A DNA stretch of 63,974 nucleotides, filler included, from Stramenopiles sp. TOSAG23-2 (taxonomy: Eukaryota): the NCBI GenBank assembly GCA_900128395.1. It is 3 parts of 3 records of this genome, joined end to end, with 100 filler letters (N's around TTAATTAATTAA, not from the genome) between each part and the next. Parts side by side here need not be neighbours in the genome. Positions count along the whole stretch, not along the records: positions 1 to 22,353 come from LT649515.1; 2 more parts are not named here. One strand, written 5' to 3'. Below, piece after piece: positions 4,865 through 50,672 of the stretch (position 1 is its first letter; each line of letters opens with the position of its first letter). The translations under genes were made by a program, and so were the position numbers. Under the pieces are notes generated by a model. It searched no databases. It saw nothing but the letters and a program-made list of their open reading frames with translations, and was not told the DNA's origin.

Positions 4865-6532
4865 TTAAAATTCTTCACTTGCATCACTTTCATAGGACTC
4901 TTCAACACTTTCGCCATTTACAACAAGATCGTTCTCTTCAATACTATTCTTGCTATTTCCATTTTCTCGTCCGTTTATTTCATTTTCAGTTTCCTTTGTT
5001 GAATTGGCAATGTCATGTTCATTGGTAGTACTGCTGGATCTTATCATTTTATCAACTATTTTTTTCTCCTTTGATATACATGCAATTAATTCACCATATG
5101 CGTAATGCGTTTTGACAGAGACTGCTGTAACAACACCATCAATTATCGATAACATACGTTTAGTAGAGCATGCATCATTATTTGAATGAACCAAAGCACA
5201 CAATTGGTTTTTTCGCACTATCTCACCTGGTTGAATAAATAATTCAACCACTCCTTCGTCTGATAGATTAGTTGAGTAGAGATGATTTTCAAATATTTTA
5301 GGCACATTCGCATCCTCATCGTCTTCTTCTTCTTCCAACTGATATTTATTTTCCATTGCTAAATCTTGGGAAAATGGTTCATATGCCGAACATGAAATGG
5401 AATTTATTTGTTCTTCCTCCATACCTGGCGGAACATTCAAAACAATACTCCCAGCCAATAATGAGCGCCAAATCATTTGTTCGATATTTTTAAAGTATGA
5501 ATAGTGTAAACCGATATGATTTGAAAAATCTTGGCAAACAGTATAACGAGGTATTGAAAAAGCATCAACTTGTAATGCTAAGTCTGACGTAAGAAATGTT
5601 TTGAAATTATTGAATTTCTTTCGAAATCCCGTGCAATTTGTAAATGGTGATCTAAAACTGCGATTCTCACTATCATCTATTGTGTTAAAATCCGAAGGTG
5701 ACGAAACAATTCCGTTGTTATTACTTGCAGTAATGTTGCTGTTGTTGTTGTTGGTACTCCTGCTGACAACAATTAAATTATCATTTTGATTTTGATTTTG
5801 TTCTTGTTCTTTTGTAATTAAAGAACCTGAATATAAAACTACTTCAATACCAAACGACGATAATAGCTCTAAGCCTAGTGCTTGTGTATTACCACAAGCA
5901 TGATCTTCTACCGATGTGACTACACATGGTGGAATACGAATGCTGTCCCCACGACAACAATCTCTGAATTCAATAAAATAATCAATTTGTGAAATAATTT
6001 TTTCTGAAAATACATGCAATAATGAGGATGGTATCTCCTCAGATAAAATGACATATTGACCACTCATTGTTTTGCAATCTAAGCTACGAAATACTTTTAG
6101 AGAAGCTGTTTCAGAAACAAGATTGCTGGTACCATTATAATATAGCCCTATTGGTCCATTTTGTATACCAGTGACTACATATAATGATATTACTCGCATT
6201 ATAGGCCCGTTGTCCGTGTGCTCAGCATATGATAATTTTACTCGTAATTTTGTACCAGTTGCACAAGAATTAAAATTGAAGTTTAATAATAACGATGGTT
6301 GAATAACAATACGGTTGTTATTACTTGAACCTGACAGGTCATCACCTGTTACATCATCCGCTATGAATGTCAAATCAACTTGAATGTCATTATCCTGTTG
6401 TTTTTTTTTTTTTTTCCTACCTCTCTTTTTTTTCCCGGAAGAGGTAGTATTCATATTAGGATTATTACGTCGTTTCTTACTTGCTCTGACTGTTTTTCCA
6501 TCTTGTTGTTCATTCGTGATAGTATTATTCAT
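4865..6532 (-). CDS. Divergent AstE/AspA (M14 succinylglutamate desuccinylase/aspartoacylase-like) protein with C-terminal barrel-sandwich hybrid domain; probably inactive
   Basis: LYVVTGIQNGPIGLYYNG...VFRSLDCKTMSGQYVIL and IISQIDYFIEFR follow the AstE/AspA pattern; C-terminal EGVVELFIQPGEIVRKNQLCALV...IDGVV hybrid motif; N-terminal basic NLS-like tract. Family call by eye. Confidence 0.55.
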   Translation of the reverse strand: MNNTITNEQQDGKTVRASKKRRNNPNMNTTSSGKKKRGRKKKKKQQDNDIQVDLTFIADDVTGDDLSGSSNNNRIVIQPSLLLNFNFNSCATGTKLRVKLSYAEHTDNGPIMRVISLYVVTGIQNGPIGLYYNGTSNLVSETASLKVFRSLDCKTMSGQYVILSEEIPSSLLHVFSEKIISQIDYFIEFRDCCRGDSIRIPPCVVTSVEDHACGNTQALGLELLSSFGIEVVLYSGSLITKEQEQNQNQNDNLIVVSRSTNNNNSNITASNNNGIVSSPSDFNTIDDSENRSFRSPFTNCTGFRKKFNNFKTFLTSDLALQVDAFSIPRYTVCQDFSNHIGLHYSYFKNIEQMIWRSLLAGSIVLNVPPGMEEEQINSISCSAYEPFSQDLAMENKYQLEEEEDDEDANVPKIFENHLYSTNLSDEGVVELFIQPGEIVRKNQLCALVHSNNDACSTKRMLSIIDGVVTAVSVKTHYAYGELIACISKEKKIVDKMIRSSSTTNEHDIANSTKETENEINGRENGNSKNSIEENDLVVNGESVEESYESDASEEF

Positions 6533-17147: not shown

Positions 17148-20100
17148 TTATGCTTTATTTACACACTTTTTACAGACATAATGCGATCCACCTGCGCATC
17201 TATATCCGTTTATAAACTGTTGTTGACAATTCATACAAGTACCTCGACCAGGAAGCCATTTATAACTTTGAGGGCATATGCCAATCTTGTCCATCTTTTC
17301 CTTCAATAACTTGTCTGACATCTCCACCATATCTTCCTCTTCCTCCTTCTCCTCTTCTTCCTCTTCTTCCTCCTTGACTTCTGTTATTTCAATCGTAGGC
17401 GCATTACGTATTCTTTGTTGGTCATCATCATCACCACCACCCCCACGACCTTCTTTGTATCGATTTGGTCGATATCTGGGTGCTCCTGACGGCGATGGAC
17501 CATTTGCAAATCGATTGTATTTCTCTTGATTAAGATTGTTCATACTCATACCAATGATGTCAAAAACATTTCGAGGCTGGATAGTATTTATAATATTATT
17601 GCTATTATTATAATTATCATGATCATCAGGATGTATATTTTCTAACTCATTTTCATTTATTCCAAAATCTTGAGCAAGAAAAGTTTTTACATACACCTGC
17701 GTCATTTTGTCTTCTATATTAAGATTTAGTTTGTCCCAATTTTTCATTGTTCTTTCAGCCAAGTTTTCCATTGCTGTTTCAACTAAGTTCACAGCTAAGC
17801 CACCATTATGGGAAGCCATTTCTTCGCTCCACTTAAATGGAATCCACTTTGCCAACTTTTCTTTCAATCCAGGTGCAAAAATATAATCTTTTTCCTCAGC
17901 CTTCGCTTCAGCAATTTCAGCTAACTCAGTACCATTGTAATTTTTTAAAATCACTTGTTGCCTAAAGCGTCTTTTTAAACCAGGATCAGCCATTAACAAT
18001 TTGCCCATTGGTCCTTCATACCCTGCTAAAATGACTAATAATTCGGATCGGTGATTTTCAATTTCTGTTAACAGCGTTTGAATGACCTCTTTACCGAAGG
18101 TATCACCACCATTACTTATCAATGCATAGGCTTCATCGATGAATAGACAGCCTCCTAATGCATCTTGAACTATTTCTCGAACATTATGCGCCGTTTGACC
18201 TACATATTGGCCTTTCAAATGCAATGCATTAATCTCTTTGAAATGCCCAGTCTCCAGTATACCATGCGCGAACAAAAATTCACCGATTAATCTGGCCGTT
18301 GTGCTTTTGCCCGTTCCAGGGTTACCCATTAACACCAAATTCATGGAATTAAATAAGGGAGCAGTGTTACCAGTTTTTTCGACATATAATGCAGTGTTTT
18401 TCATTTTCGCAAAAAATTCTTTCATGTTAGCCATACCAATTAAATTCTCTACTTTTGCTGCAATTTCATCTTTTTTTAATTGATCGGCACCAATAGAGCC
18501 TTTTCCTAGGTCTTCGATGCCAAAATCAATTCCACAAATAGTCTTAGCATCATTCATTAATTCAGTTGGATTCCTTGTCTGTCCCTCTGATGATTCTAAT
18601 AGACGGCCTTCTAGCGCTTGCACAGCTTTTTGAACAAGGTTTACAGCAAGGCCACCATTCTCTGATGCTATCTTTCGCCTATATTTGATGCCAATATGTT
18701 TGCTCAACGCCTCCACCAAACCAGGCTCAAATGATTTACCATTTCTTGAGAATGCAACGTACTCCGCAATTTGAGCAATTTCGTTTGTGGAATAATTAAC
18801 TAAATGTAACGCTTCTGGGAAACGACGTGGTAATCCCGGATCCTCTCTTAAAAGACGTTCGATCTTATCTTGATAACCAGCAATGATAACTAATGTATTA
18901 TCACGATTATTTTCAATCTCCGTCAACATAGTGCGAATAGCCTCTTTGGAAAACGTATCACCTCCTTTTCCATTTTCAGATGCCAACGCATATGCTTCAT
19001 CGATAAATAGGGTTCCAAATTTTGCGTCTTTAAACGCTGCTTTTACTAAAGGCGCGGTGCTACCAACATATTCACCTTTAAGTTCCAAGGCATTTTTTTC
19101 AACAAACTCACCCGTCAAAATGCCATGTGCTTTAAAAAATTTATGAATTATTCTTGCAAAAGTTGTTTTTCCAGTGCCAGGACAGCCTGTAAGCTTTAAA
19201 TTATAACAACGTTTCACACTACGACGATCACCAGTAATGTTTACAAACTTGATTGATTTGCTAATTTTTTTTAACCATTGTTTAGCACTGTCCATTCCAA
19301 TTAATCCTTCAACTTCTTTCATTACCTCAGCAATTAATTCTGGATCTCCAAGTTCTTTTCCAATACCAAAGTCAGCTGGGATTAATATGTTATTCGTATT
19401 TAATTGTGTTTCATCCTTTGAAATTCTTTCTACACGAGAGCGAATCGCTTGATCGACTAGATTTCGAATGAAACGAACACCACCTTCCGGTACTTTACCA
19501 CACGTATCATGCAAATGTTGAGCCAATTTGTCTTGCAATCCTTCCTGTAAAGCACTATTTCGTTGCTGCACATATTGTTCTGCAATTTTCACTAATGTTT
19601 CCGGAGACGGATTTGGAATTCGTACATGCCATGGAAACTTTGTCTCTATTTCTGCATGAGAATTTTTAATCGAGATAGCTTTGTTTGGTTTACATGCAAG
19701 TGCAATAAACGAGCTTGGCTTTGAAGCTTCTTGAACTAAACTTTCTACTAATCCGGTCTTTGCACTTGTAACATAATTGGATTCATTAACAGCATTTGTC
19801 GGTAGAATTAGTTCTGCTTGTGAAACCATTATACCACCTTCGACATTTTTGCATATGCTTGCAAATGTATCGTTACGATTTTCTGCAGCTGCATTATATA
19901 AATTTGGTGCGGAACTTTTTATAAAAGTATTTGATGGCAAAATATTATATGCATGTAAAAACTCAGTTGCTAATTCCATAAATAACGTTTTCCCTACACC
20001 ATCGTTTCCTTCAATGATTGTGTTGAACTCCCACGATGCTAATGTAGGCTGTGAATCATTCGAATCGCAATTCGTCGAAGTCTTTGCTATGGATATTGCA

Positions 20101-22353
20101 TTTCCATCATTACCACCAGAATCGACTTTTCTCTCATCATCATCAAATACATTTTTTAGACAATATTTCGTATCGGTGTCGGTTTTCTTTACGTTATTTT
20201 CTGATCGTTCATGCTCCTCAATATGTTCTCTTACACGCTGAAACCACCATCTTGGAGAATTTTCATCATTGCTGCCCCAACCAATTTGTGCAGCAATCTT
20301 ATCATTGATTGCTTGCCTCTTTTTCTCTTTCTCCTCACGGCTTACTGTATTTACATCAAAGTCACCAATAGTAAGAACTAACGGAGAATGCATAGCAAAG
20401 TTATCGTCACCTCCTGAGTCTTTTAGTCTTTTATTTTTGCGGGTAATTGCTTGATCAACACAATCATTTGCTAACCACGCATTTCTATCGTTTATCTCTT
20501 TCGCTTTATACTTTGACTTTACAATTTTTTTCATTGTCAAAAAGTCACTATTGCATTCATCGTCACATTGAAGTTTGTAACCACGCTCTCGCAATTTGTT
20601 AAGTGAAATACGTGCTAAATTTGCCGGTGATATTACTGGCAATGAAATAAGGTCAGGTTTGTATTTGCGAAAACAAGTCAATGCTGAGATGGTATTACTT
20701 ATACTGACACTGGCGCCAATAATTACACGAATGTTTTTGTCACACGCTGCACTTAAACATGTACTAATTGCAACCAATTTTTTGCGGCATATAGGTTCCG
20801 ACTCTATCATTGGCCAATAAATGGAAATTGGTTCTTTTAATGGCTTGTCTACGTTTTGAAGCTCTTCTTTTAAAGCATCTAAGCTTGCAATTTCCTTGTA
20901 CTTTTTAGGTTTTGCTATTTCAAGAGCCCCTTCTCTATAAGACCAGTCTGTTTTATTGTACTTTATAGTGATATAACCATTACCACTTCTTCCTTCTACA
21001 CGTGTAACTACACCGATTTGCCCTGGATTTAATGGCCCTCCATCTGCTTCCGTGTCAAACTTTTTATAATCCGTTTTTAGCGTCTTCTACACGTGTAACT
21101 ACACCGATTTGCCCTGGATTTAATGGCCCTCCATCTGCTTCCGTGTCAAACTTTTTATAATCCGTTTTTAGCGTCACTCTTGATCCTACTTTAATAGCAC
21201 TTACGTTGGCACTCATGTTGCCAAAAGTTATTGAGTTTGCTTTTCTAGGCTTTATTTGTACTGTAAGTACATCACACCAATCTGCAATTAGTTTTGCCGA
21301 CGTATTTTTCCCGCTTCCTGCATTTCCAGAAATTATAATATGTCTCAGCGTGACTTTTTCCAAGACTTTAAATCTCCCCTCAACATCAGCAATCGTTTTA
21401 AGAATATGTTTTTTGACAGCATCTAAACCAACTAATGCTTCTTGTTCCGCCTTTAACTTTCCAATTTTATTCGCCATTTCTGAACTTAATCCAAGTTCAC
21501 TTACAATAGATTGTACTGGAATTGAATCGGCATATTTAGCTGCAAGTTGTTTTTGCTTTGTTTCAATAGATTCTTTGCTCTTTTTGCGCATCTCTGGCAC
21601 CCGTTTTTGCAAAATAGTTCTTAACTTTTTCTTCAATTCAATTTCAAATTTCTTTTCTTCTTGAAAATACTTTTTTACGTCACGAATATGTTTTGACGCA
21701 AACGTTGCGACTAAATTCCACAATTCTTTAACGTTCTCAACTGACAAAGTTTTGTTTTTATCATTTCTTAACTTCATTATATCTGGCATAAATTTTTTTA
21801 ATACACATTTTAACTTTTTCGGTTTCTCTAATTGTTTGCGTCTGAAAAATCTACGGAGGAAGGGTATTGCTCCATATACTTTTTCGTATTCGTTAAATTC
21901 ATCAAATTTCTTTTTCTCAGAATCTCCTATTAGTAAAATCAAAATGGGAGCGATTCTTTCATGATTAAATCCCTTTCCATCAACGGTATCGCTTACTGCT
22001 TGTAAAGCTTTTAAATATAGTTTAATTGCGTATAATGCAAGCGCTTCTGTTTTATCGTTTGTTTTTAATGAAGTTTTCTTTGACTGAAATAATGCAACAG
22101 CTTCATTAAAAAATCCTTTGCCACTTATTGATGTTTTGAAGAGTCCTTTGCTAGCAGGTTTAGAGGAAGTAGTTGATGCTCCACCAAATAATCCACCTCC
22201 ATTCGTTCTTTGTGTTGATGCTCCACCAAATAACCCACCTTTAGAAGATGTTGTTGTTGGTCTACTAAATAGTCCACCTGTAGAAGCATTTGTTCTTTGT
22301 GTTGATGATCCACCAAACAGTCCACCGTTAGAAGATGTTGTTGATCCACCAAA
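17148..22353 (-). CDS. Large multi-AAA+ ATPase (four CbbX/SpoVK-type modules) with N-terminal GLFG repeats, SH3-like insert and C-terminal Cys/His domain; 5'-truncated by contig end, frame broken by a 91-bp duplication
   Basis: Removing one 91-bp copy gives one frame of about 1705 codons. Walker A motifs GNAGSGKN, GNDGVGKT, GCPGTGKT, GNPGTGKS; Walker B LFIDEAYAL twice; LKGEYVGST/LKGQYVGQT; DPGLxRRF; tail ICPQSYKW..CxxC..GYRCAGGSHYVC. Confidence 0.85.
20993..21175. repeat. Exact 91-bp tandem duplication causing an apparent frameshift
   Basis: cttctacacgtgtaact...ttttagcgtc occurs twice in tandem. Confidence 0.9.
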
Positions 22354-22453
22354 NNNNNNNNNNNNNNNNNNNNNNNNNNNNNNNNNNNNNNNNNNNNTTA
22401 ATTAATTAANNNNNNNNNNNNNNNNNNNNNNNNNNNNNNNNNNNNNNNNNNNN
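22354..22453. other. Artificial contig-joining linker N44-TTAATTAATTAA-N44
   Basis: 100-bp spacer with a six-frame stop cassette; identical linker at 44714-44813. Confidence 0.97.
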
Positions 22454-22773: not shown

Positions 22774-23931
22774 TCATAATTTGTCATTATCTTCCGCTTC
22801 GCTGTCATCATTACCCCATGGTACAAGACCAAACAAACGACTTCCAAGTGGTGTCAGGGTAAGGTCCTTAGGTAACAAATCTTTCTTGTTTTTTAACATA
22901 GGCCCATATGGATGATCCCCTGAGTTTGGAATTTGCCGGATGTATTGAACAGCACGAAAACGTTCTGAATTATTTGGATGATTGCCGTGCATTAGTAAGG
23001 AACTCCATATCAGTAAACACCCTTTACGTATAGGAATTTGTTGTACATATTTACGTAATTGGTCGTCCATTGGAATTTGTACGTTTGAGTTGGTACATAA
23101 GAAATTTTCTTCCAATTTTAAGTAATTATGTTGTAACCAATCGTAGCAAATATTGTTTGAGCCTGGGATACAATGAAACCCGCCATCTTCTTTTCTAGCA
23201 TCCGTGAGTGTAATTAATCCTTGTGGAATCAGTGTTTTTTTAAAATCAATCGGAGTCCCTTTGTTTGAAAAGCCTGCTATGCTAGCAAATCCACATGACG
23301 TTTCCCCTTCAGTAGATGGGAAAGGAGAGACAAAAATGGGATTACAATCTAGATGTACCCAGCGTTTCATTGTTTTCCATGATTCTAAATCTTGACCATT
23401 TTTTAATTTTGTCGGCCGCATTATTCCAAGCCTATCTATATCAACGATTAGTTCATCGGTCCCTAGAACTGATGCAAATGCTTTATGCACTTTAGGATTT
23501 TGTCGGTTATTAAATTGTTCTTTTGAATCAATATTTGGATACATACCAATAATACCTAAATGGCCAAATTTTTGATTCTTCCAATATTGTTCCCAAGTAG
23601 AAGCATCATCACGTTTTAAACCGGAACTTTCACCCGATTTCCAAAATTCATCCAACGTTTTCTTACATTGCTCATCTGATAATACATCCCGTAGCACAAC
23701 AAACCCGTAAGTTGAAAAAAACTCTTTTAGCTCTTTTAAATCCTTCACAGCATCAAATGTTTTTATGTAACCGTTCTGGTCTAATTGAGATTCGACAGTT
23801 AAAATCTTCTTTTCAATTAGCGCATCAATATCTACGTCTTCAAGTTTTGATGATTCCTCTTCCATTCCTTTCAATCCTAATAATGCTACTGGTCTCTTCT
23901 TTTTTTCTTTCTTACTCATCTTAATTCCCAT
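22774..23931 (-). CDS. Phytanoyl-CoA dioxygenase (PhyH)-family Fe(II)/2-oxoglutarate oxygenase
   Basis: FFSTYGFVVLRDVL, HLD (HxD), QGLITLTD..GGFHCIPGS, KGCLLIWSSLLMHGNHPN, RAVQYI. Confidence 0.88.
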   Translation of the reverse strand: MGIKMSKKEKKKRPVALLGLKGMEEESSKLEDVDIDALIEKKILTVESQLDQNGYIKTFDAVKDLKELKEFFSTYGFVVLRDVLSDEQCKKTLDEFWKSGESSGLKRDDASTWEQYWKNQKFGHLGIIGMYPNIDSKEQFNNRQNPKVHKAFASVLGTDELIVDIDRLGIMRPTKLKNGQDLESWKTMKRWVHLDCNPIFVSPFPSTEGETSCGFASIAGFSNKGTPIDFKKTLIPQGLITLTDARKEDGGFHCIPGSNNICYDWLQHNYLKLEENFLCTNSNVQIPMDDQLRKYVQQIPIRKGCLLIWSSLLMHGNHPNNSERFRAVQYIRQIPNSGDHPYGPMLKNKKDLLPKDLTLTPLGSRLFGLVPWGNDDSEAEDNDKL

Positions 23932-31093: not shown

Positions 31094-34000
31094 ATGTCAC
31101 AAAATGTATTGCATCCAGCAGGTCTTCCACAAAAAAATTATCATAAATTATCAGAAAAACAATTAGAACAATTTTATAAAAATAATACGTCAACGACGAA
31201 AATAAATAATAATAATACTAATAGTAATATACCTGTAAATACCAGCAGGTCTTCCACAAAAAAATTATCATAAATTATCAGAAAAACAATTAGAACAATT
31301 TTATAAAAATAATACGTCAACGACGAAAATAAATAATAATAATACTAATAGTAATATACCTGTAAATAAAAATGGAAGAAGTACAACGAGTAAGAAGGGA
31401 AGTAAGAATGTTCGAAGTATTAGTTTGTCTAAAACAGCTGCAAGCGGATTAGCGTATGTACAAAAAATTAATAATCCTGCAAGTATAGATATATCATGTC
31501 ATAAGTGCGGTCGTGCAATTCGTTGGCAAGCCAATTTTTGTCCAAATTGTGGAGAATCAGTAGCTTTTCCCACGAGAACATTTTTGCCTAGACCTATTGA
31601 TCCAAATGACCCATTTCTCAAAGAAAAGAAAAAGAAAGATAAATTACCTAAAAATTTAAAATCAAGTATCCATTCAGCATATGGTGGTGATAGGTTATTT
31701 CCATCATCATCGAAAAAACGTAATAGTAATAATAATAATAATAATAATAAAAGTCGTCGTCGTCGTAGTAATAATAGTAGTAATAATGTAAAGAATCAAA
31801 AACAGCAACAATCTAGTCAACAACAACAATATAATATGATACCCACATTTAATAAAACGGTAGATGCGTCAAATAGTTCTATCATCATCAACGATGGCAA
31901 TGCTATTGATGGCAATATCGAACAACAAATGTCAAATATGGAAACGAGTGTAAATAATAGTGAAATAAATCAACAAATTGAAGATGAAGATGAAATCGAA
32001 CCATCTAGATTTAAAGGACCAAATTCCGATATATTAGGCATTCTATTTGATATGAAAAATGTAGAAAGAGCATCTGGTAATATATTAGAGGGTGATGTGT
32101 ATAATAATGCAATTAAGCATTTAAAAAATGTAACAACTAAATTAAATGACGTAAAAGATGTAAAAAAATTCATGAAAAAAGCGACGAAAAAAGCAAAAGC
32201 AGCTGTGAAACAAATAATTAAAAATCGCCAACAACGTGTTTTAAAAGGTGGTATGGATATTATGGATAAAGCTGATATTTTAATTGCTCAAAGACGTGAA
32301 GAAAGTGATGAGAAATTTAAGATGCAATCCTTGAAGAAAGAAGCTATGCGACAGCGATTATTGGTTGTGTTAGAAGAAGAACAAGAACGAGAACGCGAGC
32401 GAGAAACATTTTGGTGGAGTAAAACAACACAATCAAGATCTATAGAGGAGCAAAAGCAATTAGCTGCAGTTTTTGATCAAGAACGCGAAGCAGCATCTTC
32501 AAGAATTATGTTGCTAACACAATCAATAGCACTAGCTGAACGAAATCAAACGCAAAATATATATCATGATGATGACGATGATGATGATACTGACGAGGAA
32601 CATAACGATAATAGTGTAAAGGCTGATATGATACCACGTAATGAAAATAAAATTATATTACAAAATATTGATGAAGAAGTGACATTTGAGATGAACAAAA
32701 ATGAATTTTCAAATAACAACAATAATGATGATGATGATGAAGATGCAGCATTGAATTTATTTGAATCGTCGATCGCTTCTTTAGTAGATGATGTATTTGA
32801 TGGTGAAGCCGAAGAAAATTTATTAGATGGAGAAGGTAAAAGCCATTTGTCATTACCATCGATTGAAAATACAAATGCAAACATAGATAAGAAAAATAAT
32901 GATATCGGTGTTAATTTAGATGAAATGTTTTATGAATCAGCAGATCAATTATTACCAGTCATAAATCAAAATCAAAATCAAAATGATGGGATGATGGAAA
33001 GACGTGATCATATCGACGAAGAAGAAGAGAAACGACAAATGAAATTAGAAAAGAAAAAAACAAAGAAAGTCATGAGAGAATTATTACAACCATTTGTTGA
33101 AGATGTCAAAGAAATTGAAAAAGAACATGATATGATGAAACAACGACCGTATGTTTTGTTAATTCATAATGAATTGACTGAGGAGGAAAAGGAAAAAAAA
33201 ATACGTAAAGAGCAAGCAAAGAAAGAAGAAAAGCGACAAAAGGAAACATTAAAGCAGCAATTAAAAAGACAGCAAAAAATATTAGAGAAAAAAGAAAGGT
33301 CAAAAGCAATTAAAGAAAGACAATTACGTGCTAAAATGAGACATGAATCAATACACTTACGTAAAGATATAAAGTTTCAAAACAAATTGATTGTCCGTGA
33401 TGTTCAAGCAGACCGAATGAGGCAACGACCACGAGTGGCATTTGGGACCAACGGCAATAATAGTATGGCTCATGTTCTGGATGACCCAGATAGTATAGGT
33501 ATTATAAAAAATAAAAGCATAGTTTCATTTGAAAGTATGGTGGATAATACTTTAAATGACGAAAGTACATTAAACATTTCTGCACCAACTAGTGGTATTT
33601 TTTGGGGAGAGTCGATGGAATTGGTTGATAATCAAGATTCCGAGCTTCCGATGGATCGTATGGCTTCTACTACGGTTGGCGGTGGTGTTTTTTGGGGTGA
33701 TTGGGTCAACGAAGGCGATATCATTGACGAAGGTGCCGAGGAGAGGGAGGAAAATGAGGAGCATAAAACAAGTAGAGGCGGATTATCATCAGCTGGAAGT
33801 GCATATTCTTACAAGAGTCAACGCTCTACTAAAACTGCTGCTACTGCTAGCACCGGCAACGTCCATCCAATTACACATTTATTGACTATATATCGTAAAC
33901 GATTTGTCGGTGGTCCTAAATTATCTGATCGCATCAAGACATTTAATCTTAAAGGTCGAAGTGCCAAACTTGGTGGACTTGGCAAGTTAGAAACAAAATA

Positions 34001-35990
34001 TCGTGTATTAAATTGTGGTGATCCCATGTTTACATGTAGTACTAAAGTTTCTGGCAGCATAAATCAAGGGAGAGGCGCATATGCTATTGTTACAGTCTAT
34101 GATGGTGGCGGTGGACCAAATGAACCAAATTTACGCACAGATCTAGTCCTTGCCGCGTATTTACCTGCAACATGTGAGCATCTCGTAGTACGTATAAACC
34201 GCGCAGAAGTCTCAATGTTTTTAAATAAATCTACAGATTGGTTTTCAGCAAATGATGTACATGATGGAAAAGCATCAATGCAATATATGCGTCCATATTG
34301 GCAAAAAAAAATCAGCCCAATAGTTCATAGATTGCAGATTCATTTACAAATGATAGGTGGTGAAAATTATATATCCCGTGACTTGTATTTAGATGTCGAT
34401 CGATGTATATTATCAAAAACAAAAGTAAAGGTGCCTTGTATAGAGGATCAAAAAGAATTTAATGATGGGTCATTCCCAAATAATGCTGCTATTGTAGTAC
34501 GTGTTGAACGTAGTACAAAAAAAGATACAAATAAAAAAAATGAAAAAAAAGAATACGATGCATCTGGAAATGTGATTGAAAAAAAATTAAGAGATTGGGA
34601 AATTCATGAAGGACCCCCTGGCTCTGAATTGATCATATTTGCAGTTACAGTTGTAAGTCGCAGACAAAATGGTGTGCGTGATACGATGCGTAAATCAATA
34701 TCACTTGCACATTTAACACGTCACTTAAAATTGCCGAAGAAACCAATGTTGATGGTGGCAGATGAGAAACGGGATGAGTTATGCAATGCAATTCTCAAGT
34801 CACTCCGTTTTGTCTATTTGAGTCCGGTTGAGGGAGACCCGACAGATGAAAATGGGAGATTTCGCCGATATACAAAAGCAGAAGCTATGATGGAAGCTGA
34901 ACTTGATTTTGTATTTAAATGGGCAAAGCCTTCACGTCGCCCAATAACATTTGTTGATCCATCAAAAGCACCATCTCCAGTTAAAGAATTACCATCACCA
35001 AAACAAATAGATGATAGCAAACAAGATGAAGAAGACTTAAAAATCGCTGAAGAATCTGCCGCTGTACAAATGCAACGAGTTTATCGTGGATTTAAAGATC
35101 GCAATGTTGTAAATTTAAAACGTGAAGAAATGGAAAAAGAAATGGCCAGGAAATTAAAAGAAGAACAGGAAAGAGAAGAAACGGAACGTCAATTGATGCA
35201 TCAAGAAGATATCTCTATGCGAAATTACATAAAAGAATTAGCAAAAAAGCAAAAAGAAGAGGATCGATTAAATAATCAATTTGCATACCGCGTTGTTAAA
35301 ACTAATGTTAACATTGATGGAAAGCGTGTATCGATAACGATAAATGTTACCGACAAGCCATCCTTGCATATTGCATTCATCGTTGTTGTACATGAACATT
35401 CGAATAAAAAATTACTTTTAACTTTAAGCGAAGGTGAAAAATTAGATGGTTTTATTGATCATTACTGCAATAATGACGAGGGTAGGCCAATAGTGGATAA
35501 TATTGTTGCTGGTTTGCAACAAAATGACTATCCTAACTTTGTAGATTTAATGGTAAAACATTTGCAACTATTTCATTCAAAGAAGAATAATGTAATGGTA
35601 TTGTCATTAAAAGCACCACTGGAAGATGCTGTTGATAAAGGCGACGTCGCAAAAACAATGATTACTCCAAAGCGTAAAGTGGAAGGAAAAACTACTATTG
35701 TTGATATTGATGCTGATTTAGATACAACTGATTTATTTTTGAAAGATGGATCTGTATTAAAAACTCCACCAGCAACACCATCATTTGTACCAACTCTTGA
35801 TATGGAAAGCGTAAAGAAAAGCAAACGTAGAAGGCGAAGGGTAAAATTAGGCATGCCTGCTAAAGGAGGAACACCAAAAAAAACAAATACAAATATTGAT
35901 TTGAAAAAGAAATTTGATAAAGTTGCAACTGATAAAAAGAAGAGGAAAAAAAAAAAAAAAAAATCTCCCACTAATGTGTTGATATTTTAG
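31094..35990 (+). CDS. Large hypothetical protein with N-terminal zinc ribbon, coiled coils and an IQ motif; true ATG at 31094, frame broken by a 127-bp duplication (31115-31368)
   Basis: CHKCG..FCPNCGE; MQRVYRGFKDR; removing one 127-bp copy puts ATG 31094 in frame with the 31425 ORF. Confidence 0.75.
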
Positions 35991-44713: not shown

Positions 44714-44813
44714 NNNNNNNNNNNNNNNNNNNNNNNNNNNNNNNNNNNNNNNNNNNNTTAATTAATTAANNNNNNNNNNNNNNNNNNNNNNNNNNNNNNN
44801 NNNNNNNNNNNNN
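44714..44813. other. Artificial contig-joining linker N44-TTAATTAATTAA-N44
   Basis: Same 100-bp cassette as 22354-22453. Confidence 0.97.
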
Positions 44814-45663: not shown

Positions 45664-48600
45664 TTAATTCAAAGCAGCATCTGTATTTTGAGCATCTTGT
45701 AATTTCTTCTTTGGTATTGAAGGCCCAATCAAAGCCTCTAATTGATTCCTCAGTTCAGCTGCTTCATTTGTTGCAGCTTCTTCTGCTTCATCATCATCAT
45801 CATCAAATGCTTGTATTGCCCTTTCATTAGCTTCAGCAATTTTTGCACGCAACTCATCAATGACCGCTTGATCAACTTTACCTGCTTCACTTTCCTTTTT
45901 CTTTTCTTCTATGGTTTTGATCAATGCTTTCTTTTGTTTTTTCAATGCTTTTGCTTGTGTACGTGCTGCCATCACTCCAGCATTATCGTTATTTGAAGAT
46001 GCGACTCTCATTACATTTTTGATATCCATAATTGCTTTTTCAATCTCAGCTAATTTATCCTCATCACTTAACTCCTCTTCTTCCGGTTTAGCAGGCTCAA
46101 AGCTCAAATCAACTGTTTTATATTCACCACTTCTTAACTTTTCTAAAATAATATTTTGTTCTCGTACTTGATATTGATAACCTAATTTTTCAAATTCCGA
46201 AATAACATTGACAATTGTCTCGATATCACCTTTCCATCTAGCAATTTCACATTTAAGAATTAAAACATCCATAGGTAAACATTCTAATTCTGTAGCATAT
46301 TGAAGTGATTCTTCTAATTTTTTAAATGTTGCTGCAAATGAACGATCAGCTAAGTGAAGTGTAATTCTTGCAACATATGCTTGCATTGAACATCGATACA
46401 CCCCTGGATTCATACTTGCAAATGAATTAATATTTGCACGGATTGTAATTAGCAACTTCTTCGTCGCTTCACTCGGTTCATGTACATCAAGACCCAAAAG
46501 TGCAATTATAACTGGAGAATGATATATCTCTATATGTGTCATAAATGGCATCATAATTGGATAACCTTTTGGCATTGCCATGAGCGTTTCCATATATGTC
46601 TTTACTTTGTTCCAATCACTTTCAACATATGCCGAATACATTGCGCCTCTAGTTAGGCCTATATACCCCATTTGATTTGTTGGAAATTTTTGTTGCGTAT
46701 TAGGAAACAACTCGCCCATATTTTGCAAATCTTCATATGATTTCCGCATCAGCTCCACATCTGCACGGACAACACCTGAAAAAAGCCGTGCAACCGTTTG
46801 AATTTCAAATGCAGTAGCTTTTTGATCAATGAGAGCTTCACTGTCAAAACGTACTTTACTGACACGATCTACAAAAAACAAATAACTTTTTACATCCGCT
46901 AATGAAAGCATTTGTAAAGATAAGTGATTGATATGATGTGTTATATCAAATGCAAATTTTAAGTTACCATCAATCATTGGCAAGATGTCTTTAAATCTTT
47001 GTAAAGAAGTTTGCACTGCTTCTGGGGCTAATGTTAAATAAGATGTAAATGCATTTCTTAATGACGTGGAGCGATATTGAGGCCTTAGTCTTGTAGATTC
47101 ACTTAAAAGAGTGCAACGACGAAATGTTCGTTGTACTTGCTCTGGGTGATTAAACAGCATCTTCATGTTATTCGCCATGGGCCAGAAGATATGGAGCAAT
47201 GTCCAGCTGTCAATATCATTTTGCTTATATGCATTTAGTAGTCCATAGTAACGATACCATTCTGATATATGTGCTAGATCTTCGGATGTTTCAATTCCAT
47301 ATTTGTCTTTCAATCCAGATCTAATTTCTGGAATCCACTCCATTTGATCAATAAGACAAACCGTGATTAATACTTTTGTTTTATCTATCTCAGAAAATGC
47401 CCCATCAACTTTTGTTGGAATATCACCAAGCTCTCCATATTCCCGCATCATTTTATCTAACGATATTTGCGATTTTTTTGTAGGAAGGAATTCTGGATCA
47501 TTCAATTGATGCAATGCTTCCCACATTGTACGAGCAGCAACCATTCTATCACCGTATGAATACCTGGCATACCCTAACAATGCCGTCCAATATGGAGTGC
47601 GCTTAGAACCTTTTTCCTTACTATAAGCTATTGCTTGACTTAATGAGTTTACACATTCCTTAAATGCCCCAATATCCCTGTATTATGATGAGGTATGGCA
47701 TAAATTTGTAAGAGGGAATGTGTTAGAAAATATATCTACTATAGGTGTGTAAGGAAATAGAATTTTACTTACAGAGCTTTAATTGCCGCATTGGTCAACA
47801 TATCACATCCACGTTCAACATCACCACTACGTAACCAATGAAAAGCTAGTACATCCATTTCATATTTAACTGATGAATTTTCATATTCCTCAACAATTGC
47901 TCGATGTACCTGTTGTCTTTGGGATTCCAACATTAAATTATGTGCACATTCTGTGATAATTTGATGTGTAAATTTCATCATTTTGCTAACAGATTCACCA
48001 GTCACAGCAACAACTAAACCACGTGCTGCTAATGTTTCCAATGTACTATGTAAATGTGTTAAATCTTGGGATGATAGAAATTGCGGTGCAACATTTACCA
48101 AATGGGCTTGGCGAAATTCAAAGCCAAAACATGCACATACTTTTATTAATACTTTTGCTTCTTCATCTAAGCTATCAATTCGTTCATGTACTGTATCCAT
48201 AATTGAACTTGGAAATTTAATTTGCTTAATATCACCAGTAAATAATATGTTTCCATTTTCATCTCTATTTACCAAATCACGTTCTTTTAACCAATTAGTC
48301 ATGGAGGATAAATACATAGGAATACCTCCAGCTTTTTGATCCATTAATTTGACAAAATCATCACTAACTTTATCAACATCAACATCTAATGTTTTACCAA
48401 TCAATGTCTTCATTGTCTCGTGATCCATTGTTCCTAATTCCATTAAAGTGATATTACTATTTTCCTTCAACGCTGCAAGAATTCTGGAAAATTTGATTCG
48501 ATCATCATCTTCTAACCATTCTTCTTCAATTTTTTCCTCCTTTGATTTCAGTGCTGCATCTGCACCTCCAGCTTTTTGTTGAGAAATCATATTTGGTGGA

Positions 48601-50672
48601 CGCGTTACAATCATAACAATGCTGTTGATACTCAATTGGGGCAAAACCATTTGCAGCATAAGCCACGATTGTGAATCAATCCAATGTGCATCTTCAAATA
48701 CAAATATTGTATTTTCCAAAGATTGAAAAATCTTCAAACAAACTTGTGCAGCGCGTGCTTCGAGGCGCCCATGGTCAATTTGTTTTCCAGTAGCATCAAG
48801 CTTGGCTAATTGTGGTAAAATGATACCAAGTGCATTTAAATCTTCCTCTTCCAATCCATGATTAAATTTCAGGGCAAGAACTTCACCATACGATGGGGAC
48901 GTGGATAAATTTGCTGCAGCTGTTAAAATTTGACTAAATGCAAAATATGGAGTTTGTTTTTCAATTGCAGATCCGGTTCCCATTAAAAAACGAACATTGT
49001 CATCAATCGCCTCTCGTTGCAATTGCCATACAATGGCACTTTTACCCATACCAGCTAAACCTTCTAAAATATAAGCACTGCCTTTTTTTTCCTCTAACAT
49101 TGCTTTTAAACCAGCACGAAGTTTTGTCATCTCCGTTTCCCGACCGACAAATACACCTTTATCTAATTCATCTTGATTTTTATGACGCACCGCACCAGCT
49201 CTTCTTCCATATGGACATAGCGCGCGAAATACGCCATCTTTTCCTTTCACTTCAATCGGATTCGACATATCATAACCTATATAATTCTGCGTAGCATTGT
49301 ATACACGTTCACTGACTAATATTTTACCAAGTGCAGCTTTTCCCATCAATCGAGCTGCCATATTTGTCTCAGCACCCATCACCACAAAATCACAACGTGA
49401 TGGATGACCACATATGCCAGTAAAACATTGTCCCATTGAAATACCAATTTTACAAGGGGTACTAAGAGAGGAACATGCAGAGGAGGCTTCTAATGCAAAT
49501 AGCACCGCTCTTAAAGCATCTACTTCAGTGATACGTGTTATACCAAAGCATGCTATTAATGTACATCCTTTATCTTCAAATAAAAAATCACGCATTTGGC
49601 CTTCAAATTTAGCAAGGACAGAACGTAATGCAGAATATACATCGTTTAAGTTGGATTCATTTACACCTTGTGATGTTGTCGATTCTTTGGCAAGGTTCGG
49701 CAATGATAGAAAGACTATTACTACTCGTCTCCGCTCGTTTTCAAATCTTGCATTACCGCCTTTAGCACGCACAATTGGTGGCAGATATGCGGATGCTATT
49801 TCAGGACATTGCGCAAGTTCTGATGTATATGTATCAATCATAGTTCCACGCTTTGATACGCGTTTTTGCATTTGCTCTTCATTCTCTTCCTCATCATTAA
49901 TATCTTCGTAATTTGTTTCTCGAGTTAATGTAAGTCCCCCATAAACTTTAATAGTTCCAGCTTTTGCTCTATCAAGTAGCCCAGCAGCGATTTTCAATGG
50001 TCTTCCAGCAATTAAAAACCACCGTTGTTTACGTCTTTCAAATTCAGCTCTTGACATGGTTGTTTCATCATGTTTCTTCATGCGTTGCCTGGCTGTATTT
50101 GATCTGGGAGATGACCCACGCAATTCTTTTAAATGCAACCGTTGCAAAGTTCCAGAGCCAGCTAATCCACCGTGGAGATCAAGGTCTTCATTACAAGTCT
50201 TAATAATTTTTAACATTTCAAGTGAACATTCTTTTGCACGTTCAAATGATTTTTCATCGCCTCGATCTTCTGGATCTGTTGGTATGGCACCAAAAACGCA
50301 TATTAAGCAATCACCAGCTATTTTCACCACTTCACCTTCATAACGGTGTGTAACATTGACTAATGCAGATATTGCAGTTGACATTTGTGCAGCAAATTCT
50401 TCTGCACCTTTTGCATCGCCATACTCCTTTGTAAGCTTTTCCCCTAATGCAGTAAATCCAGAAATGTCAGCGAGTAACAAACATGCTTCCACAAGCTCTT
50501 TACTTGGAGCATCCGGGAGTCTTTTTTTCTTTGTTATTTCCAGTCTAACACTTCTTGGAATAAGCCCCGCATTCTTCATAGACATATATGTTGTAATTGT
50601 TTCTGTTGTATTTACCACATTTTCACTTCCACCAGGTAAGGATAAGCCAACTTCATATTTTGTATCAGCCAT
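45664..50672 (-). CDS. ADCY10: Soluble adenylyl cyclase (ADCY10-like): two class III cyclase domains, STAND P-loop NTPase and helical repeats; exons 50672-47773, 47677-45664
   Basis: LLADISGFT, IAGDCL, FEDKGCT, NMAARLM; Walker A GLAGMGKS, Walker B FEDAHWID; GGIPMY, FTHQII; in-frame GT-AG intron 47678-47772. Confidence 0.88.

Follow-up and report, generated by a model that had tools for sequence, protein, structure and literature searches.

In a 63,974-nucleotide stretch of DNA assembled from Stramenopiles sp. TOSAG23-2 (GCA_900128395.1; hereafter the window), the minus strand of positions 17148-22353 encodes a block of nucleoporin-like GLFG/FG repeats followed by four tandem AAA+ ATPase modules of the CbbX/SpoVK type. 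Judged from its translation and its relatives, this region corresponds to the 3' two-thirds of a large protist gene whose full product has about 2500 amino acids (aa), and the FG block and the CbbX-type array very probably form a single real gene with no chimeric join between them. The ATPase family is already known (JGI label, 'SpoVK/Ycf46/Vps4 family AAA+-type ATPase'); the new part is the conserved combination of this family with nucleoporin-like FG and GLEBS-like elements. No description of an FG block joined to a CbbX/SpoVK-type AAA+ array was found in the full-text literature, subscription journals and supplementary files excluded. We put the probability at roughly 0.5 that the product is a remodeller of proteins or ribonucleoproteins (RNPs) targeted to the nuclear pore or to an FG phase. 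The parts of the gene, from its 5' end in the window to the stop codon, are as follows.

22099-22353, minus strand: GLFG/FG repeat block, window aa 1-85, equal to aa 792-876 of the metagenome protein P0266; cut at the contig end
21457-22098, minus strand: conserved, mostly helical family domain, from alignment with P0006, P0012, P0013 and P0014; no in-frame ATG before 21789
20163-21456, minus strand: AAA-like module 1 (M1), degenerate, with GNAGSGKN and Walker B lost, from the module alignment
about 20898-21237, minus strand: beta-rich insert in module 1, no Pfam match
19368-20150, minus strand: AAA-like module 2 (M2), with GNDGVGKT intact, Walker B (VSQAE) and arginine finger lost, and an AAA_lid_6 lid
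18477-19340, minus strand: AAA module 3 (M3), intact, with GCPGTGKT, LFIDEA, AGY, PGLPRRF and a pore-loop-like GEYVG
17583-18476, minus strand: AAA module 4 (M4), intact, with GNPGTGKS, LFIDEA, AGY, PGLKRRF and GQYVG
17298-17582, minus strand: low-complexity tail (N-rich, G-rich), then an acidic Glu run, from the translation
17151-17297, minus strand: C-terminal Cys/His finger, CPQSYKW...CMNC...GYRCAGGSHYVCKKC
17148-17150, minus strand: stop codon, from the translation

The frame of this gene is broken in the assembly. Two stop-free frames lie on the minus strand in different phase, at 21064-22401 (445 codons) and 17148-21086 (1312 codons). The first opens with 16 X that come from N, and continues with FGGSTTSSNGGLFGGSSTQRTNASTGGLFSRPTTTSSKGGLFGGASTQRTNGGGLFGGASTTSSKPASKGLFKTSISGKGFF, a helical stretch and then IIISGNAGSGKN; the second holds the remainder of the ATPase array and has the C-terminal end ...GYRCAGGSHYVCKKCVNKA before the stop codon. 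An earlier reading made from the sequence alone (the sequence-only reading) had taken the frame to continue without a stop, but the phase change coincides exactly with a 91-nt tandem duplication, and a second copy of this length, not being divisible by three, puts the reading out of phase. Removal of one copy by script gave a single 1704-codon open reading frame (ORF) without internal stop, called here the collapsed ORF (1704 aa). A Logan contig of run X1 (8334 nt; a separate assembly, X1 being possibly the source run) skips the 91 nt, passing from 20992 to 21084, and covers 20500-20992 and then 21084-22353 at consecutive record positions. In the metagenome proteins P0003, P0266 and P0271 the reading is continuous and the unit is present once, and P0003 (ENA, 1480 aa) is identical to aa 255-1704 of the collapsed ORF except for one 30-aa insertion. 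By these comparisons, the duplication and the resulting frame break are an assembly artefact. The two features that bear on the assembly here are these.

21084-21174: extra copy of an exact 91-nt tandem duplication, 100% identical to its partner at 20993-21083
22354-22453, no strand: contig-joining spacer N44-TTAATTAATTAA-N44, non-biological, with N runs at 22354-22397 and 22410-22453

Since 22354-22453 is a spacer, position 22353 is a contig end and the 5' truncation of the gene, which the sequence-only reading had recognised without its cause, is an assembly break. Four copies of a 57-nt unit stand at this break, i.e., it falls inside a coding repeat. The missing 5' part came from the cluster members of P0003. 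One member of its 90%-identity cluster, P0266, is a protein of 2528 aa on an 8698-nt ENA contig; the alignment of the collapsed ORF to its aa 792-2528 shows 4 mismatches and a single gap of 33 aa. P0266 thus adds 791 N-terminal residues lacking in the window. This protein starts with Met and an FG cluster (GGFTFGGG, NGFGST, NGFSFGTT), followed by about 600 aa without a Pfam match, a short motif (…YNPSKLHTIPQLMQKYQGHEKKLMDKLKKKY) and then the FG block GFGVGGGGGFGSTTSSKGGVFGGSTTSSNGGLFGG…, which continues into the window sequence. The GLFG block, which had been placed at the N-terminus, is therefore internal in P0266, at about aa 770-876 of 2528, and the FG motifs fall in two separate blocks. 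A contig of run X4, an independent seawater metagenome, is 3244 nt long, shows 0 differences over 21085-22353 (1269 nt) and continues 1975 nt beyond 22353. Three separate assemblies (X1, X4 and the P0266 contig) are concordant on the join between FG block and ATPase.

The N-terminal part of the protein gave little in direct searches. When the N-terminal piece of the window was compared with longer proteins for a 5' extension, only P0003 and a nucleoporin were returned, and no near relatives were found for its aa 80-393. The N-terminal 752 aa (P0270) matched no Pfam family at E <= 0.1, and their AlphaFold2 single-sequence model (mean pLDDT 35.6) was unusable. A RanBP2-type finger seen by eye at about aa 160-185 of P0266 had no Pfam support. 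The short motif directly before the FG block (…Y.P.K…KY.G.E..L…L.K[KQ]Y) occurs at about aa 723-765 of P0266 and about aa 480-525 of the orthologue P0272; P0270 covers most of it and has no Pfam match.

Beside the duplication, in the module-1 insert, a Gly-rich loop of about 30-33 aa, VEGRS[ PQYSATSPPYNP…GGGGGFGGGNS… ]GNGY, is subject to indel polymorphism. Its site is at about 20982-20986, between the minus-strand codons for VEGRS and GNGY. The loop is absent from the window and from X1 and present, in three different forms, in X4 DNA, an X16 RNA contig, P0003, P0266 and P0271.

The combination of parts recurs in an orthologue. P0006 shares 47% identity over 85% of the query, but its gene call is cut short; two members of its cluster, P0272 (2392 aa, JGI) and P0277 (2286 aa, ENA), carry an added N-terminal region. 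In these two proteins a similar short motif is followed by 16 FG between aa 535 and 714 (11-12 FG in 120 aa), then by FQSISFMPQFASKSLEELRLEDH, a GLEBS-like motif, and downstream of it by the same helical domain, the four modules and a C-terminus that is SAM-like by eye only. Against the Pfam model Nup98_GLEBS (cut-off 27), FQSISFMPQFASKSLEELRLEDH scored 26.2 bits in P0006 (E 8e-06) and 25.3 bits in P0272 (E 1.6e-05). The Pfam scan of P0266 returned no GLEBS match, and a true nucleoporin, P0123, did not reach E 0.01 with the same model. Both parts, the FG block and the AAA array, are present in P0266, P0272 and P0277.

When FG-dense sequence was defined by a fixed minimum of 5 FG per 120 aa, 17 of the 326 compared sequences qualified, and these make up four AAA clusters (those of this gene and P0006, and the more distant ones of P0036 and P0019) and the nucleoporin P0123. 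The P0036 cluster comprises 7 proteins of 2002-2006 aa (P0036 and P0297-P0302), each on a separate contig, with a PSFG/FTFG-rich N-terminus. This cluster is a more distant AAA family with its own C-terminal motif, CCPSG.HAWGQQC….

Read from 22353, the minus frame gives FGGSTTSSNGGLFGG...; the 85-aa block contains four GGLF[GS], one GLFK and one GFF, and three further FG-type motifs lie upstream of the window portion in P0266. Pfam Nucleoporin_FG (PF13634; cut-off 32.2 bits) matches the window block with 33.8 bits (E 6.2e-08) and P0266 aa 779-863 with 37.6 bits, in line with the GLFG repeats first noticed by eye in the translation. The five GLF leucines are encoded by CTG, CTA, TTA, TTA and CTC, i.e., by four different codons, and the GLF motif is as such kept at the protein level, suggesting selection on the peptide and not on a DNA repeat. 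The composition of P0266 aa 766-876 (111 aa; G32 S19 T16 F10, 1 acidic and 9 basic residues), together with the PF13634 score, is that of a GLFG domain with uncharged polar spacers. From 22353 to 21789 the frame lacks an ATG, the first Met of the N-terminal piece being aa 189, and since the conserved sequence of the relatives begins at about 22098 the FG frame must be translated.

Downstream of the FG block, the helical domain aligns with P0006 at 39% over 127 aa (BLASTP, E 3e-23) and leads into four modules that are mutually alignable. Pfam AAA matches the window protein in 2 stretches (E 1.6e-38), and AAA_lid_6 (PF17866) matches aa 518-573 of P0002, the window's own protein (E 1.2e-15, 57.7 bits against a cut-off of 24.3). 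Among solved structures, those closest to it are CbbX (3zuh_A, E 3.6e-30; 3syk_A, 3.9e-30) and EccA1 (9lur_A, 5.1e-30), while VCP-like ATPases are far weaker (1.7e-08). Walker A and B in M3 and M4, the AAA_lid_6 and these closest solved relatives place the array in the CbbX/SpoVK/EccA class; M1 and M2 lack Walker B. Four AAA-like modules with M3 and M4 intact (Walker A, Walker B, PGLxRRF) agree with the sequence-only reading. Its description of M1 and M2 as degenerate fits M1, which has GKN and no Walker B, and is right for the lost Walker B of M2, but M2 keeps GVGKT; its atlas features score 0.94 to AAA/AAA_lid_6 clusters. The HMMER alignment to CbbX 3zuh_A covers M4, where GQYVG aligns with CbbX GQYIG, and the Tyr of the G[EQ]YVG-equivalent CbbX loop is presumably the pore-loop residue needed for Rubisco activation. 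A ring oligomer with ATP-driven substrate threading is putative for the present protein, which has the pore-loop-like G[EQ]YVG.

At about 19400-19500, M2 keeps a sensor-2-like GGVRFIRNLVDQA (VRFIRN). The corresponding stretches of M3 and M4 (about 18600-18700 and 17700-17800) read NGGLAVNLV, with no Arg at that place. We take the VRFIRN and NGGLAVNL positions to be sensor-2, in which case the Arg seems to be replaced in M3 and M4. The beta-rich insert of module 1 was considered as an SH3 domain and had no Pfam match (best NfeD, E 0.11). In the relative P0010, an extra domain just upstream of the counterpart of the insert matches SH3_15.

Compared with known systems, the motor resembles CbbX, EccA1 and SpoVK in Walker A/B, sensor-1 AGY, the PGLxRRF arginine finger, G-x-Y-[VI]-G and AAA_lid_6, and M3 and M4 match CbbX (3zuh/3syl, E about 4e-30) and EccA1 (9lur). 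It differs from them in having four tandem modules per chain, two of them degenerate, in being a eukaryotic nuclear gene, and in the added FG blocks, helical N-domain, beta-rich insert and C-terminal finger; furthermore, nothing ties this protein to Rubisco or type VII secretion. With Nup98/Nup116 it shares GLFG repeats, uncharged Ser/Thr/Asn/Gly spacers and, in the orthologue, a GLEBS-like motif after the FG block. In contrast to these nucleoporins, the bulk of the protein is ATPase, and Pfam found no S59 autopeptidase (PF04096) in P0266 or the window pieces, whereas it is present in the control P0123. There are about 10 FG-type motifs (by eye) here, compared to 19 GLFG and 35 FG in P0123.

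The closest functional analogy is with GLH-1/2/4 of C. elegans, Vasa-class DEAD-box helicases that are NTPases with FG repeats; it is by its FG repeats that GLH-1 links P granules to the nuclear pore (PMC12050070). The motor of GLH-1 is unrelated to the one described here (DEAD-box RNA helicase versus AAA+), and the setting is an animal germline and not a marine protist. Oncogenic NUP98 fusions likewise join a Nup98-type FG region to a foreign functional domain, and the FG part reportedly drives condensation; these are somatic translocations of human leukaemia with chromatin or transcription partners, whereas the present fusion is natural, conserved, germline-encoded and has an ATPase as partner. 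The repeats of the GLH proteins are FGG and not GLFG. Those ATPases that are known to act at the nuclear pore are peripheral (Dbp5) or brought in for quality control (Vps4, p97, torsins), and transport through the FG barrier is not known to need an ATPase inside the barrier itself. A conserved and expressed protist protein with cohesive FG repeats on an AAA+ motor that threads proteins would be an obvious candidate for keeping up an FG phase actively, and a natural counterpart to the engineered and oncogenic FG fusions. Its FG domain is well defined, measures only about 110 aa and sits on an assayable handle.

Given that FG block and ATPase form one gene, and that an orthologue has a 16-FG block and a GLEBS-like motif, targeting to the nuclear pore or an FG phase, which the sequence-only reading had put forward as nuclear-pore or condensate targeting, can reasonably be proposed. 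In such a protein the FG blocks would partition into the FG meshwork of the nuclear pore, or into FG-like condensates, and bind transport receptors, and the GLEBS-like motif of the orthologue could also bind or recruit Rae1/Gle2. Powered by ATP, the M3-M4 motor would pull or thread client polypeptides in the way that CbbX acts on the tail of Rubisco, and M1-M2 would serve as a non-hydrolysing structural scaffold. A narrower version, which we regard as doubtful, has a marine-protist AAA+ machine resident in the nuclear pore, a mimic of the Nup98 N-terminus fused to a CbbX-type unfoldase, that would work inside the FG barrier and spend ATP on clearing stuck cargo or receptors, remodelling exported mRNPs or FG-phase upkeep; we know of no such ATP-driven function among nuclear pore components.

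Of the listed run rows, 20 of 24 contain the stretch or part of it (14 with half or more of its words; 6 RNA libraries); they come from 13 studies and most are labelled marine, seawater or aquatic metagenomes, with four DNA rows under coded organism names. This distribution suggests a picoeukaryote lineage that is abundant and uncultured. Contigs from the RNA runs X15 and X16 lie on the ATPase part as well as on the GLFG part, DNA carry-over being possible; in this comparison, window parts without RNA contig cover count for nothing and depths were not used.

Several observations weigh against the proposed targeting or against the join on which it depends. The Nucleoporin_FG scores exceed the cut-off by only 1.6-5.4 bits, and Gly-rich FG tracts occur also in proteins unrelated to the pore. 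The GLEBS match falls short of its cut-off and belongs to the orthologue, not to this gene. In P0036, P0019 and P0077 the FG segments had no Pfam Nucleoporin_FG match at E <= 0.01, and the close relatives P0007 and P0010 are without FG blocks and have Agenet/Tudor or SH3_15 instead. No RNA contig bridges 22130-22144, the FG/ATPase boundary: the X16 polyA contig (21999-22130) diverges upstream of 22130 to read …DMNSGGYSG(T), the X15 contig (22144-22300) diverges downstream of 22144 to read SFYVSSIKGD, and neither DMNSGGYSG nor SFYVSSIKGD is in any protein of the comparison set.

In an alternative explanation the fusion is real and its FG tracts are general low-complexity cohesive linkers, leading to self-association or to cytoplasmic RNP granules where clients would be remodelled, unrelated to the pore. 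We consider this possible, if unlikely. It would be in keeping with the marginal Pfam support, absent in the more distant relatives, with an orthologue block that is of GGFG/SFG type and very Gly-rich (G69 S33 A27 F21 in 220 aa), with the variable G-rich loop (GGGGGFGGGNS...) inside module 1, far from the pore-like motifs, and with family members that have RNA- or chromatin-type domains, e.g., Agenet/Tudor, plus IQ. A GLEBS-like motif directly after the orthologue FG block speaks against it, an FG region with a GLEBS motif being the arrangement of the Nup98 N-terminal region, as do the two separate FG clusters in P0266 and the GLFG form with hardly any acidic residue in its spacers, which is typical of cohesive nucleoporin domains.

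The sequence-only reading had also raised an antiviral sensor, i.e., an ATPase of innate immunity or genetic conflict whose FG repeats are a decoy for viral capsids or karyopherins. Nothing points to this, and we hold it to be improbable. The accessory domains do vary widely in the family, there are many paralogous clusters in marine metagenomes and the loop shows indel polymorphism between populations, but that loop is low-complexity sequence, in which repeat units are easily gained and lost, the Pfam scans found neither effector nor sensor domains of defence type (the padloc defence library was not searched), the suggested link to ZNFX1 was not reproduced and the contig neighbours are of ordinary housekeeping types.

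The divergent RNA contigs, from two studies and parting from the window within 22130-22144, are the main evidence for the least probable explanation, that the FG-ATPase junction is a chimera of the assembly, or else an allele of one lineage that is rearranged or dead, with the start of the true ATPase just upstream of GKGFFNEAV (the X16 contig reads …DMNSGGYSGT-ISGKGFF…, P0012 starts only about 25 aa before the conserved EEIxxMF motif without an FG block, and the window assembly is demonstrably faulty 1 kb away); we judge it very improbable, as it is outweighed by the agreement of X1, X4 and the P0266 contig on the join, the continuous frame and an orthologue with the same order of parts. These RNA contigs are low-depth Logan contigs of 176-194 nt with 2 differences each from the window, and may therefore come from other strains or paralogues, or be graph chimeras through the repeat. 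Canonical splicing at the divergence points was also considered and rejected, there being no AG or GT at 22130/22131 or 22144/22143.

Returning to the gene as one fusion, its family is large, with 1127 proteins at E <= 0.001 among 7997 scored candidates, in many paralogous clusters from marine metagenomes. Accessory domains are swapped at both ends, with Agenet/Tudor, SH3_15 and IQ at N-terminal or internal positions and ubiquitin plus VWA at the C-terminus. Searches for related loci gave 238 pattern matches in JGI metagenome contigs and 12 in IMG/VR, with 0 confirmed in either.

The C-terminal finger has seven invariant positions in 10 sequences (C24 C37 C40 C50 H55 C58 C61). The tail motif G[YIFW]RC.GG[ST]H..C..C occurs in 11 of 265 compared sequences including P0002 and the near-identical P0003, i.e., in 9 of 263 others. 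An AlphaFold2 model of the finger from the 10-sequence alignment had a mean pLDDT of 80; Foldseek found no match to it in the PDB at E <= 0.001, and the weak top rows were mostly C1 domains (RAF1 CRD, DGK-delta, PKC, KSR). Its atlas features are nearest to C1_2/zf-KKT2_KKT3 (score 0.90, a lead only). The finger model thus looks weakly C1-like, and a relation to RZ-finger proteins of the ZNFX1/RNF213 type is not supported. Of the proposed likeness to fungal ZNFX1-like helicase proteins, the recurrence of the GYRC.GG[ST]H tail holds; the Pfam scans found no helicase-core domain beyond sub-threshold P-loop-only matches, fungal proteins not having been searched directly.

The window as a whole consists of at least three contigs. 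A second copy of the N44-TTAATTAATTAA-N44 spacer, identical to that at 22354-22453, lies at 44714-44813, and there is a separate 27-N gap at 1015-1041. The spacer puts stop codons in all six frames. With the spacer between them, the PhyH-like ORF at 22774-23931 sits on another contig and is no true neighbour of the ATPase gene; gene neighbourhoods across the spacers are not real. As a practical lesson, this assembly carries 91-nt overlap duplications and concatenation spacers without flagging them, and gene calls are broken by either.

The other genes of the window are cellular and of eukaryote type, namely GH20 hexosaminidase, ATG13, LRR_6, SHIPPO repeat and SH3+IQ proteins, and further a kinesin, a cyclase with AAA_16, a sulfatase, a protein kinase and a USP47-like protease. 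In steps of 2 kb the GC content lies at about 28-39%, and the ORFs are long and mostly without interruption. We read the source, on this gene content, as an AT-rich and apparently intron-poor protist, neither virus nor prokaryote. A giant-virus origin, considered for the low GC and dense ORFs, was ruled out by the cellular, eukaryote-type genes (ATG13, kinesin, SHIPPO, SH3+IQ, the USP47-like protease, kinase and cyclase). Three long ORFs had no Pfam match at the thresholds used, at 31836-35990 on the plus strand (1384 aa) and at 45664-47544 (626 aa) and 4865-6532 (555 aa) on the minus strand. On the minus strand at 47769-50672 there is an ORF of 967 aa in which the catalytic domain of an adenylate/guanylate cyclase is joined to an AAA_16 (STAND-like) NTPase.

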